Assembly (NCBI GenBank): GCA_048886185.1
Contig: JBHLKY010000016.1
Location: 1 to 32,000 of the forward strand
Direction: 5' to 3'
DNA: 32,000 bases
Source of the DNA: Candidatus Hermodarchaeota archaeon
GTDB lineage: Archaea > Asgardarchaeota > Heimdallarchaeia > Hodarchaeales > Hodarchaeaceae
This document shows, one piece after another, positions 22,610 to 31,549 of this stretch; the stretch's first letter is position 1; each line of letters begins with the position of its first letter. The translations under genes and the position numbers were made by a program. The notes beneath the pieces were generated by a model that saw only the letters and a program-made list of their open reading frames with translations, was not told the DNA's origin and ran no database searches.

Positions 22610-23881
22610 TCATTCTTCCTCGGGTAGAACGAAATCAGGTACAGTCTTAGGGAGGGTAGATTCAGTGTTGTCAAATTTTTTAAGATCGTTTATATTTACG
22701 TTTAATTCCACTTTAGACTCTTCTGATTCAGTGGGTTCATCGTCTACGGTTTCCACATCACCTTTTTCAGGTTCCTGAGGAGATTCATCTTCTGCAGGTT
22801 CCACTCCAACCTCAAATTCCTCAGGAGACTCAAATTCTTCAGATTCAGTCTTAATCTCCTCTACTGATTCTTTGTCTACTGTTATTTCTTCTGCTGGTTT
22901 CTTTTCCGCTTCATTTTCTCCCTTGTCTTCGGCCTCTTCTATTTCCTCCTCTTCCTCCTCTTCTTCCACATCACCCATTAAGCGCTTCAGACGCCACAGC
23001 ATTTGGAGCTTCAGGCGTCGACTTTCATCATCAAAACCGAAATCATTAGCAAATTTCGGTGTTGTCGTATAAGATGTTGATCGTGCGCGGTCTTCCCCTA
23101 TAACGTACCCCCTATTTTCCAAATCTCGGCATATCTCAGTTATTTTTACTGGGCCGATACCTCGGATTATTTTCTTTACCAATGCTAAGGAGATAGGTTG
23201 TCGATACGCAATTTCTGTAATAACACGTCGTTCTTCTTCTGTCATGAATTTTTCAGGAAAAAACTCGTGGAAGAACTCGTGATAGATTGGATTGAGCTGG
23301 AGCACCCATCGATCTCTTGAAATTTCTTCAATAACAATTGGAGAAGTCCGCTTTCTTTGGCGTGAGAGTTTTCTTATGGTCCGTTTTACAAGAGGTGATT
23401 CTTCTTGTAGACTCTCAATGAGTTCATCTGCGTGTATTGGTCTTCCAATAGAAAACAAAGCACCCTCGATTCGTTCCTCTAGGCTGATGGGCACGAGCTT
23501 TATTGGAGCTATAATGGCTGTATCAAGTTTGGTTTGAACAGGAAGTTGAGCTTTTAAGAGTTCAGGTGATATGAAGCTGTTTATTGACACCTCAGATTCA
23601 ACTATTGCCCCTGCGAAGGGAAGAAAATCTAGAATGGGTTCTAGTATCGCGGGTTCCTCGGGAATTGGTTCTGAGATTACTTTGGGAAGTGTGGCGAATT
23701 GTTCTTCAAATGGAGTTTCTGTGGTAGTATAGACTTCTATTGATTGCATCTGCGATTCTTCTTGAGTTTCCTGTGATATTTCCGCAGCTGGAGTAATTAT
23801 ATCACTTTTAGTGTCTACTTCCTCCTCTATAGTTTTTTCCTTCTTCTTATCTTTCTTTCTTCGACGGAAAAGACGAAACAT
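22610..23881 (-). CDS. scpB: ScpB/kite-family protein with long N-terminal and acidic C-terminal extensions
   Basis: Core aa ~134-302: IEGALFSIGRPI, EIAYRQPIS..IRG, YTTTPKFANDFG, the tandem wHTH pattern of ScpB. Confidence 0.85.
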   Translation of the reverse strand: MFRLFRRRKKDKKKEKTIEEEVDTKSDIITPAAEISQETQEESQMQSIEVYTTTETPFEEQFATLPKVISEPIPEEPAILEPILDFLPFAGAIVESEVSINSFISPELLKAQLPVQTKLDTAIIAPIKLVPISLEERIEGALFSIGRPIHADELIESLQEESPLVKRTIRKLSRQRKRTSPIVIEEISRDRWVLQLNPIYHEFFHEFFPEKFMTEEERRVITEIAYRQPISLALVKKIIRGIGPVKITEICRDLENRGYVIGEDRARSTSYTTTPKFANDFGFDDESRRLKLQMLWRLKRLMGDVEEEEEEEEIEEAEDKGENEAEKKPAEEITVDKESVEEIKTESEEFESPEEFEVGVEPAEDESPQEPEKGDVETVDDEPTESEESKVELNVNINDLKKFDNTESTLPKTVPDFVLPEEE

Positions 23882-23897
23882 GGGTTATCACAGATTT

Positions 23898-30900: not shown

Positions 30901-31549
30901 GTTCTGCATCCTCCTTTTCCTTACGTAACAATTCAACGCGCTTATGAACTTCATTCACCAATAATTGAAGTTCGTCCATTCTTCTTTGTGCTTCATCTAA
31001 CTCTACAAGAGCTGTGCTTTTTTTCTCATCAAATTGTCCCACCCCCGCTAGGTTTTCCATCAATTCTCGCCGTTGAATTGGATTCATCCCCACAATCTCC
31101 CCTACTTGCCCCTGAGCTATAATGTTGTATGAATTGACAACATCTATTCCAGCAATACGAAGTTTGTCTAGGATATCTGTACGAGTAGTACGTTTTCCAT
31201 TTAATCTGTAAGTTCCAGAACCATTCCTTTTTAATTCTCGGCTGACAATTACTTCTTCTTCTTTAAGAGGTATAGCGTAATCAGAATTATCAAAAACTAT
31301 CTCAACAATGGCCTTTTCAGCGGGTTTTTTTCCACCAATCCCATTATAAATAAGGCCAATCATTTTCTCTGCTCTCATTGACTTTTTAGATAACGCACCC
31401 AAACAAAAATTAACACCATCAATGCTATTTGATTTCCCACTACCATTAGGACCTACAATTACCGTAAATCCTTTAGCTAGGGGCATTCTAACGGTACCAG
31501 ATCCATAAGACTTCCACCCTGTCATCTTGATCTCCTTTATATGAACCAT
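27974..31549 (-). CDS. smc: Chromosome segregation SMC ATPase
   Basis: Walker A GPNGSGKSN, Q-loop IIAQGQ, two long coiled coils, hinge GX6GX3GG (GDVFYSNGIIYGG), signature MSGGEK, Walker B/D-loop ILDEIDAALD, ISHR; 1191 aa. Confidence 0.97.
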   Translation of the reverse strand: MVHIKEIKMTGWKSYGSGTVRMPLAKGFTVIVGPNGSGKSNSIDGVNFCLGALSKKSMRAEKMIGLIYNGIGGKKPAEKAIVEIVFDNSDYAIPLKEEEVIVSRELKRNGSGTYRLNGKRTTRTDILDKLRIAGIDVVNSYNIIAQGQVGEIVGMNPIQRRELMENLAGVGQFDEKKSTALVELDEAQRRMDELQLLVNEVHKRVELLRKEKEDAERWTQLDNEILQLKALLISYAFHNNQQNANKFDEEIAKIRASQETMINDRQRIDENIEEVTEKIRSLEDHTIRLETSLSEIRTSAEEKNIEKAKIEEKTEYNKKTIKSNETRIKQLQERLDQIERKTEEEVQTREKLEESKKELQSRIEETQNQRTGIETELEQKNQQYEDIKNEYDDAERRHKVENDRLTKTQVSFEVSQNMVTAFQNNVNEFEKRQKELEEQILASQNKSQELTQSLEENNKQIEEAKSKVGEIDQKKSNLEEKISSLETRNRELNDKYLVLKARVDTISSFLKAEEGKENPAVSFISTKANNGELQGVLGEFQNLSSEGESLPTEVGHLSDAIITETIDASLACIQLLKDNAVGAANFIPLERFKLKSSEKFSNIVKKIREQNQIVADIREAANTWRKRDQTVSTVDGDVFYSNGIIYGGFHLAAAQETVDVLRTEMNDTREQRDTINSQLKEEQENRKKLLDLEKVINKSIEKLEKQIQDATIQLTQQENEVKLYQSNMEKNKQELAPLQQQLQDRLKARDEQQKEMEFYEENVEKIANEITEIGQRLEAADTRPLLEKMNQVEQQLGKLQGKLTGIESRIEGLMTSKEEKEHRATETSNEINSVEVENANLTGELQVLEDQHTQLEEQLRKILANEEEVTKEMQEVKSDLSTQKKYQGQLVKDKEKLNEKIVKFEEKITEIKLQRERLTVELENLQNEAVENNIEILPPDAEELKGVKEDRITQEINQKSQAKTKLEPVNMRALTEFQEENTRYIELLDRRDILIEERQVILDFIEEIETEKYSVFMKVFRSVNKHFGSIFNELSGGDARLILEKDPKKGEDIFEGGMFIEAHPAGKKVASLESMSGGEKALTALAFIFAVQTVDAQPFYILDEIDAALDPMNVRRVAKLLHRMSRTVGQEDDGKNAKKTTPGAQFLVISHRDILMAWADRLYGCTNVKGLSSVFSIQMSEEKQLERAEAF

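Follow-up and report, generated by a model that had tools for sequence, protein, structure and literature searches.

A two-kite Smc-ScpA gene cluster of Hodarchaeum and the TrmB-type rod protein gene lodged within it

We have analyzed a gene cluster for a structural maintenance of chromosomes (SMC) complex on a 32,000-nt stretch of contig JBHLKY010000016.1 of Candidatus Hermodarchaeota archaeon, a member of the order Hodarchaeales; this whole stretch is referred to as the window. The genus concerned is Hodarchaeum (Heimdallarchaeia; Hodarchaeales), which includes Candidatus Hodarchaeum mangrovi, and the Hodarchaeales are the archaeal order closest to eukaryotes. Four genes of the cluster are on the minus strand, namely smc (27974-31549, 1191 aa, a condensin-type SMC ATPase), scpA (27081-27944, 287 aa, a very divergent kleisin), and the two kite paralogs scpB1 (23898-24461, 187 aa, short) and scpB2 (22610-23881, 423 aa). 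Between scpA and scpB1, on the opposite strand, lies a gene (24674-27076 (+)) for an 800-aa protein with a TrmB-type winged helix-turn-helix (HTH), a two-helix rod of hendecad periodicity and a C-terminal domain resembling the phospholipase D (PLD) fold, which we call the TrmB-rod gene. The reading that we prefer, with a probability of about 0.68, is that of a condensin-type Smc-ScpA operon with two kites, into which the gene of a general architectural DNA-binding protein was inserted in this genus specifically. The TrmB-rod gene is thus probably a lodger in the cluster rather than the source of a fifth subunit.

According to this scenario, a kite gene would have given rise to two very different tandem paralogs before the two families sampled here split, with ScpB2 being ScpB-like with long tails and ScpB1 short and fast-evolving. 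In a second step, confined to the ancestor of the genus, a gene of an Asgard-wide, multi-paralog family would have entered the interval between scpA and scpB1 in the opposite orientation, splitting the operon into smc-scpA and scpB1-scpB2 and leaving each of the two divergent genes with its own box resembling a transcription factor B recognition element and TATA box (BRE/TATA-like box). The TrmB-rod protein itself would have a TrmBL2-like DNA-binding head, made of the winged HTH and the PLD-like domain, with the rod placed between the two halves of the head, and would act as a general architectural or regulatory DNA-binding protein independently of SMC, so that its place in the scp locus would represent inherited gene order and not evidence of a fifth subunit. 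A preliminary description of this DNA had instead proposed a dedicated five-component SMC system. Its account of the layout holds throughout: the five open reading frames are placed as it gave them, the TAA of the TrmB-rod gene ends at 27076 and the stop of scpA starts at 27081, leaving a convergent spacer of 4 nt (27077-27080), and a divergent intergenic region of 212 bp (24462-24673) is shared with the scpB pair. An SMC protein, a kleisin and two clearly different kites are also real, as judged from profile matches and, for the kleisin, from hhalign; the genome of the window contains one SMC, one ScpA and two ScpB.

The five-component proposal did not survive the comparison with other genomes. 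In the sister family of Hodarchaeales (f2) the genes smc-scpA-scpB1-scpB2 are collinear on one strand with no space for another gene, and the TrmB-rod orthologues of this family (811 and 817 aa) are found on other contigs, where their neighbors are either unannotated or encode a T2SSE-like ATPase, a CBS protein and a methyltransferase. From the other Asgard families we sampled 40 ScpB neighborhoods, extending about 10 kb to each side where the contig allowed. The smc and scpB genes were on the same strand and within a few kb of each other in 37 of them, and the C-terminal domain of the TrmB-rod family occurred in none of the 40. In the opposite direction, 36 other loci of the TrmB-rod family, amounting to 504 kb, had nothing similar to SMC, ScpA or ScpB, whether compared with those of Hodarchaeum, of the Loki type or of two further Asgard types. 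Family f4 has an SMC with a weakly ScpA-positive neighbor, a ScpB and TrmB-rod paralogs, all on different contigs. The synteny survey that the preliminary description had proposed as a check therefore found the linkage within the genus and failed to find it in the sister family and in other Asgard families, and everywhere outside the genus the TrmB-rod gene had no link to smc or scp genes. Linkage to smc, kleisin or kite genes, or co-occurrence with them, across independent lineages, which would mark an accessory subunit, was not seen.

The family and the complex also part company in entire genomes. The ScpB family PF04079 was found in none of the 47 genomes of families f3, f5, f6, and f7, including the 30 that are at least 85% complete, and an SMC of the window type was not found at E<=1e-30 in the nine f3 and f5 genomes searched, while the TrmB-rod family was present in 46 of the 47. 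It should be noted that these genomes (G024-G078) may depend on SMC-like systems of another kind, at which no search was aimed. In a family tree built on the conserved N- and C-terminal domains, the proteins of the genus form a clade (support 100/99) to which the f2 proteins are sister (88/79); an f3 plus f5 clade (98/97) and two f4 subfamilies join these within a larger group (95/92) of unresolved internal order, outside which lie a third f4 subfamily and the second paralogs of the genus. The window genome alone has four members of the family, three of which have unrelated neighbors. Of 400 Asgard genomes, 340 have matches to the C-terminal domain profile, mostly several per genome, and the frames of the best 150 of about 1000 hits range from about 580 to 1800 aa. 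Eight representatives from other Asgard families (846-1794 aa; L125-L132) have the HTH at the N-terminus and the C-terminal domain at the extreme C-terminus, separated by rods of 613-1539 residues. A 1396-aa paralog in the window genome (G000:C13:32535-36725; L124:7536-11723), with weak HTH and C-terminal matches and an Apolipoprotein-like middle, is a longer and more divergent member of the family. A limited literature search found no published description of the TrmB-rod family (its loci include L038-L075). We thus have a large, Asgard-wide family with TrmBL2-like heads and hendecad rods of about 570-1540 residues, which may have a role in chromatin or elsewhere, and a cultured Hodarchaeales strain, now reported, could serve to test its function.

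The TrmB-rod protein was assigned by sequence profiles and structural modeling. The TrmB-type winged HTH (24689-24883 (+), aa 6-70) matches PF01978 with 39 bits against a cut-off of 25.6 (E 5.5e-10, or 3e-11 for the N-terminal 110 aa alone). The AlphaFold2 (AF2) model, made with a 30-sequence family alignment and with a mean predicted local distance difference test score (pLDDT) of 77, has the winged HTH at residues 13-69, followed by two continuous helices, rod helix 1 (24890-25735 (+), aa 73-354, 282 residues) and rod helix 2 (25754-26611 (+), aa 361-646, 286 residues), both at a pLDDT of about 80-85, and by a C-terminal alpha/beta domain with a PLD-like fold (26633-27067 (+), aa 654-798). 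The sole internal segment with a pLDDT below 50 is the apex loop between the helices (aa 355-360). When the model was compared with PDB using Foldseek the top match was TrmBL2 (5BPD, E 3.3e-6); the effector domain of TrmB (2F5T) superposed with a root-mean-square deviation of 3.0 over 151 columns, and the PLD-fold proteins NucT, Nuc, and PLD3 were among the matches. The C-terminal domain taken alone had nothing meaningful in Pfam (to E 10), PF11495 included, and nothing by profile against PDB sequences, and a word-based homology search with this region returned genus-level orthologues only. With hhalign it aligned to a short TrmB of another Asgard genome (probability 75%, E 2.5e-5) and not to a second short TrmB, from the window genome (probability 0.6%). 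No conserved catalytic HKD motif was seen in the PLD-like domain in the family alignment.

On these comparisons, the TrmB-rod protein is of the TrmB/TrmBL2 type with a rod of about 570 residues in place of the short linker helix. It shares with TrmBL2, a chromatin protein of the Thermococcales (PDB 5BPD, 5BPI, 5BQT), the winged HTH and a PLD-like domain without the sugar-binding subdomain, which appears to be missing here as well since the C-terminal domain has only about 150 aa. It is, however, not an orthologue of TrmBL2, as the model NF041141 gives 23 bits against a cut-off of 530 and matches the HTH only, and the hendecad rod where TrmBL2 has a short linker helix is a further difference. 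The sugar-sensing TrmB regulators (PDB 2F5T, 3QPH; PF01978 plus PF11495) have in common with it the HTH family and the fold of the first effector subdomain; they differ in that the TrmB-rod protein has no match to PF11495, has the rod inserted and apparently lacks the sugar-binding beta subdomain. Mean column identity among the orthologues is highest in the C-terminal domain (0.78), followed by the HTH (0.74), and is 0.59-0.62 in the rod, the length of which is constant within the genus despite this lower conservation.

The periodicity of the rod is unlike that of an SMC arm. Hydrophobic residues recur with a period of 3.66 in rod helix 1 (power 226, vs. 4 at 3.50) and in rod helix 2 (power 235), and power at 3.50 is only 1-4 along the rod, which excludes a heptad coiled coil of the type found in the arms of SMC or Rad50. 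The preliminary description had called this region a coiled coil; the helical rod is indeed there, but its repeat follows an 11/3 (hendecad) and not a heptad pattern. The 11/3 period is coherent along both helices, also when averaged over 15 orthologues; it lies at 3.66-3.68 in the same eight representatives of other Asgard families, and all 23 family members from the class of the genus that lie outside the clade at the scp locus peak at 3.62-3.68. Because the two helices are of equal length and connected by a short loop, they probably fold back on each other into an antiparallel hairpin, a straight rod some 40 nm long in which the HTH would come to lie next to the C-terminal domain. TrmB proteins dimerize, and by analogy a dimer of the TrmB-rod protein would have a four-helix rod.

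Within the genus the linkage is consistent. Orthologues of the TrmB-rod protein are present in 15 genus members (799-808 aa, 41-76% identity), and of the 15 loci, each taken with about 11-20 kb of sequence, 13 have the order scpB2-scpB1, TrmB-rod gene, scpA-smc. In the other two (G001 and G016) smc is elsewhere and scpA, the TrmB-rod gene, scpB1, and scpB2 are still together. Apparent absences of the TrmB-rod gene in G007 and G009 turned out to be assembly artifacts, due to a run of N and a contig end, respectively. This conservation represents mostly plain genus-level synteny, because in the 13 loci a block of about 14 kb that includes unrelated flanking genes is conserved as well; a linkage confined to one genus is indistinguishable from inherited gene order. 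In G003 a second, partial copy of the TrmB-rod gene, comprising its last ~100 codons (82% identity; L022:8521-8811), lies between this gene and scpA and widens the gap to 496 nt.

Several observations nevertheless weigh against an inherited order without function. None of the 22 genus genomes contradicts the arrangement: 16, the window included, were fully verified, and in the other six a contig end or scaffold gap interrupts the locus. In 14 of the 15 loci only 1-88 nt separate the TrmB-rod gene from scpA at their convergent ends. Selection for linkage also predicts just what is seen where smc has left, i.e., that the core of scpA, TrmB-rod gene, and scpB1-scpB2 stays together. The nearest solved structure is that of TrmBL2, a proven roadblock for archaeal SMC (PMC11840125). 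The survey itself was drawn, outside the class, from ScpB-centred (condensin-type) loci and not from SMC5/6-related operons (bioRxiv 10.1101/2024.01.07.573240), and the family census from the 150 best hits mentioned above. The antiparallel packing of the helices is not inspectable in the AF2 model either, for which the predicted template modeling score (pTM) is 0.34.

These observations would be explained if the TrmB-rod protein had been recruited in this genus as a partner of Smc-ScpAB, be it as a roadblock, an anchor or a loader, and the linkage were under selection. The preliminary description had noted that TrmBL2 was reported to act as a roadblock for Smc-ScpAB, and rightly so: this has been shown experimentally for the archaeal complex (PMC11840125). 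The structural likeness of the head to TrmBL2, together with the gene being tightly convergent with scpA and the core of scpA, TrmB-rod gene, and scpB surviving the departure of smc, is in line with recruitment, as is the length of the protein, held at 799-808 aa while identity drops to 41%, and a 40-nm rod standing on DNA would make a plausible steric barrier. Recruitment is nonetheless unlikely in our view. There is no linkage in the sister family, in the 40 other ScpB loci or in the 36 other family loci, and the orthologous lineage is present in families where ScpB and a window-type SMC were not found. The TrmB-rod gene is on the opposite strand with a promoter-like box of its own, and its product evolves much faster than SMC (70-88% identity in the same genomes) or ScpA (72-89%). 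Moreover, the roadblock role of TrmBL2 is not described as tied to gene linkage in the Thermococcus kodakarensis study (PMC11840125), and adjacency is therefore not needed for such a role. The fullest form of this alternative, in which the captured protein would be a DNA-bound barrier or anchor of about 40 nm working with Smc-ScpA-ScpB1/ScpB2, a boundary element comparable to CTCF or TrmBL2, is likewise unlikely. If the five-component reading were true, a DNA-binding barrier that is dedicated to a prokaryotic SMC complex and genetically linked to it would be seen here for the first time; beyond one genus, the comparative evidence does not support this reading.

TrmB-family proteins are transcription regulators, and the TrmB-rod protein might simply bind the divergent region and control scpB1-scpB2 and itself, in which case its connection with SMC would be regulatory. 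The well conserved HTH and the divergent transcription from scpB1-scpB2 would suit such a role. The region has one BRE/TATA-like box for scpB1 (~24517-24538, about 59 nt upstream of the gene) and one for the TrmB-rod gene (24586-24603, about 72-80 nt upstream), roughly 65 bp apart, and a ribosome-binding-like motif, GGAAGTGA (24662-24669), just before the TrmB-rod start. When the seven closest genus members were aligned, the two boxes, a TTAAAAG-like motif downstream of the TATA box of the TrmB-rod gene and GGAAGTGA were conserved, the spacer between the boxes was variable, and no conserved palindrome or operator-like block was seen between them. Its length in the genus lies between 154 and 511 bp, with the exception of 2533 bp in G016, where two esterase-like genes (L033:6358-8480) have come between scpB1 and the TrmB-rod gene and break up the divergent promoter arrangement. 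The divergent region lends no support to a shared operator, although one may exist. As paralogs and orthologues elsewhere are located beside unrelated genes, and a simple repressor role would leave a rod of 570 residues unexplained, local regulation is improbable.

The insertions in G016 and in two Loki-type genomes, and the separation of smc in G001 and G016, show that the gene order of the cluster is not tightly constrained by function. In one of the Loki-type genomes, G273, smc and scpA are separated by an opposite-strand gene for a 1080-aa B12-binding radical S-adenosylmethionine (radical-SAM) protein (L098:11735-14974(+)); in the other, G160, a Ras-family GTPase and a zinc-finger protein are encoded between the same two genes. 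The radical-SAM insertion parallels that of the TrmB-rod gene in the window.

The rod could also be an amphipathic, surface-binding one, like the 11-mers of apolipoproteins, perilipins or late embryogenesis abundant (LEA) proteins, that tethers DNA to a membrane or hydrophobic surface with no link to SMC, as the strict 11/3 periodicity in both helices and in all family members tested, the sub-threshold Pfam matches to Apolipoprotein, ApoLp-III, and similar families and the Thr/Gln/Ser/Glu-rich composition with one Pro in 574 residues might suggest, but this is very improbable, given that no transmembrane or lipid-anchor feature was seen, that two uninterrupted helices of equal length at a pLDDT of about 80-85 fit a self-associating hairpin, and that hendecads also build soluble straight helical bundles. 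The likeness to these hendecad proteins consists of the hydrophobic period of 3.67 residues and the weak Apolipoprotein matches; in the TrmB-rod protein the repeats are instead the middle of a DNA-binding regulator and form one long predicted hairpin, without sequence homology above family thresholds.

Under the preferred reading, the machinery proper consists of the four minus-strand genes. The SMC protein matches TIGR02168 over residues 4-1179 with 571 bits (cut-off 567) and SMC_N at 9e-41, and scores 613 bits with TIGR02169, under the cut-off of 729 for that model; the hinge is matched only weakly (18 bits; cut-off 22.5). Arm 1, which served as the control for the rod, peaks at the heptad period of 3.50 (power 203), and the gene is the sole SMC match in the window genome (phmmer, E<=1e-3). 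A size of about 1190 aa is shared by the window and most other Asgard loci sampled, and the SMC of the Loki type (families f19 and f20; L083-L099, L114), at 1473-1505 aa, is some 300 residues longer. In G018, a metagenome-assembled genome of the genus, a single contig (C70:1630-7989) carries an additional SMC-like frame of 1501 aa together with a canonical ScpB that scores highly; this third ScpB and its SMC-like neighbor resemble a Loki-type system and were set aside as possible contamination.

The scpA product had no match in Pfam (scanned to E 10), NCBIfam or PDB sequences by sequence and profile searches, and its relatives from a profile search were unannotated Hodarchaeales proteins only. 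Its alignment nevertheless aligned to Asgard ScpA with hhalign at a probability of 99.4% (E 5.6e-21, 212 columns), and in 14 of the 40 loci from other Asgard families phmmer matches it to the gene flanked by smc and scpB (E 1e-5 to 1e-12). Intermediates exist: of six such smc-scpB-flanked genes tested one passes the Pfam ScpA model PF02616 (L080, 38 bits), and the gene adjoining smc in family f4 (L051) passes it as well with 28.8 bits. An embedding search (ESM-atlas) gave a top score of 0.94, with ScpA-bearing clusters making up 87 of 100 matches. These four lines of sequence comparison identify the 287-aa protein as an ScpA-family kleisin. In the sister family, too, its gene is flanked by smc and scpB1. 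AF2 modeled the kleisin poorly, with a pLDDT of 48 that was too low for a fold search. The Hodarchaeales kleisin is thus invisible to the standard Pfam and NCBIfam models, and automated censuses will therefore score such genomes as being without ScpA.

Both kites are ScpB-like by Pfam, with 64 bits to PF04079 for ScpB2 (aa 137-285; core at 23027-23473) and 61 bits for ScpB1 (core at 23982-24431), against a cut-off of 27.4, and yet the two can hardly be aligned (BLASTP E 5e-4 over 35 aa). In a tree of the ScpB core, ScpB1 forms a long-branched clade with its sister-family orthologue (Shimodaira-Hasegawa-like approximate likelihood ratio test, SH-aLRT, 100), and ScpB2 falls among ordinary Asgard ScpB in a clade with its own sister-family orthologues (SH-aLRT 99). 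Since each kite groups with its counterpart in the sister family, these sequences place the origin of the pair before the split of the two sampled Hodarchaeales families; both kites are kept as a set across the order in so far as these two families represent it, and most other Asgard genomes have a single ScpB. ScpB2 consists of the ScpB core with a long N-terminal extension and an acidic C-terminal one. These tails are variable in length among orthologues (365-458 aa in total), and the length of ScpB1 is constant at 187 aa. In bacteria a dimer of ScpB binds the kleisin, and by analogy ScpB1 and ScpB2 would most likely sit as a pair, one copy of each, on the middle of ScpA. The assembly of ScpA with ScpB is, however, not to be assumed, because in vitro work did not detect an interaction between the archaeal proteins (PMC11840125).

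Compared with Smc-ScpAB of Bacillus subtilis and Thermococcus kodakarensis, the Hodarchaeum system has the same parts, i.e., an SMC ATPase, an ScpA-family kleisin and an ScpB-family kite, and the smc-scpA-scpB order of the known system matches that of the 37 other Asgard loci mentioned above. It differs in having two divergent tandem kites and not one kite gene, in a kleisin beyond the reach of the Pfam and NCBIfam models and in a cluster split by an opposite-strand gene. The T. kodakarensis complex is encoded by TK1017 (smc), TK1018 (scpA), and TK1962 (scpB), with smc and scpA in one operon (PMC11840125). The Nse1-Nse3 pair of eukaryotic SMC5/6 is similar in that two different kites go with one kleisin. 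For the Hodarchaeales family LC-3, three kite paralogs, Nse3-related and Nse1-3-related, have been reported beside different SMC genes (bioRxiv 10.1101/2024.01.07.573240); unlike these and unlike Nse1-Nse3, the Hodarchaeum kites are both of the ScpB type and are encoded in a condensin-type operon. The same survey lists one kleisin and one ScpB-like kite for Hodarchaeum mangrovi, which are not neighbors (bioRxiv 10.1101/2024.01.07.573240). This fits the intervening TrmB-rod gene seen here, and the survey appears to under-count the tandem second kite. With one SMC, one kleisin and two ScpB-type kites that differ strongly, the Hodarchaeales system is a condensin-type parallel to Nse1-Nse3, a variant of some interest for how heteromeric kites arose.

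Some further neighboring genes were noted. Small Ras/Arf/Rab-like GTPase genes occur beside or inside the smc-scp cluster in three lineages, namely the genus (window 21263-22553), the sister family (L036:4913-5515) and one Loki-type genome (L093:12071-12610), and a further one (L122:10264-10815) is separated by about 690 bp from the C6 paralog of the TrmB-rod gene. Small GTPases of this kind abound in Asgard genomes, and the proximity of their genes to smc-scp clusters may for this reason be due to chance. A recurrent neighbor of about 1000 aa of TrmB-rod family members had been considered as an SMC-like ATPase and proved to be a Dna2-like nuclease-helicase. In f3 the TrmB-rod orthologue is found near this nuclease-helicase, which there has a C-terminal RING finger, and near an ATPase resembling the large subunit of replication factor C (RFC) or Rad17 (L054:692-3694(-), L073:10949-13936(+), L054:8047-9648(-)); a RING finger fused to Dna2 is, to our knowledge, unusual. 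In f4 one TrmB-rod paralog adjoins the gene of a different protein that combines a PD-(D/E)XK nuclease with a superfamily 1 (SF1) helicase.

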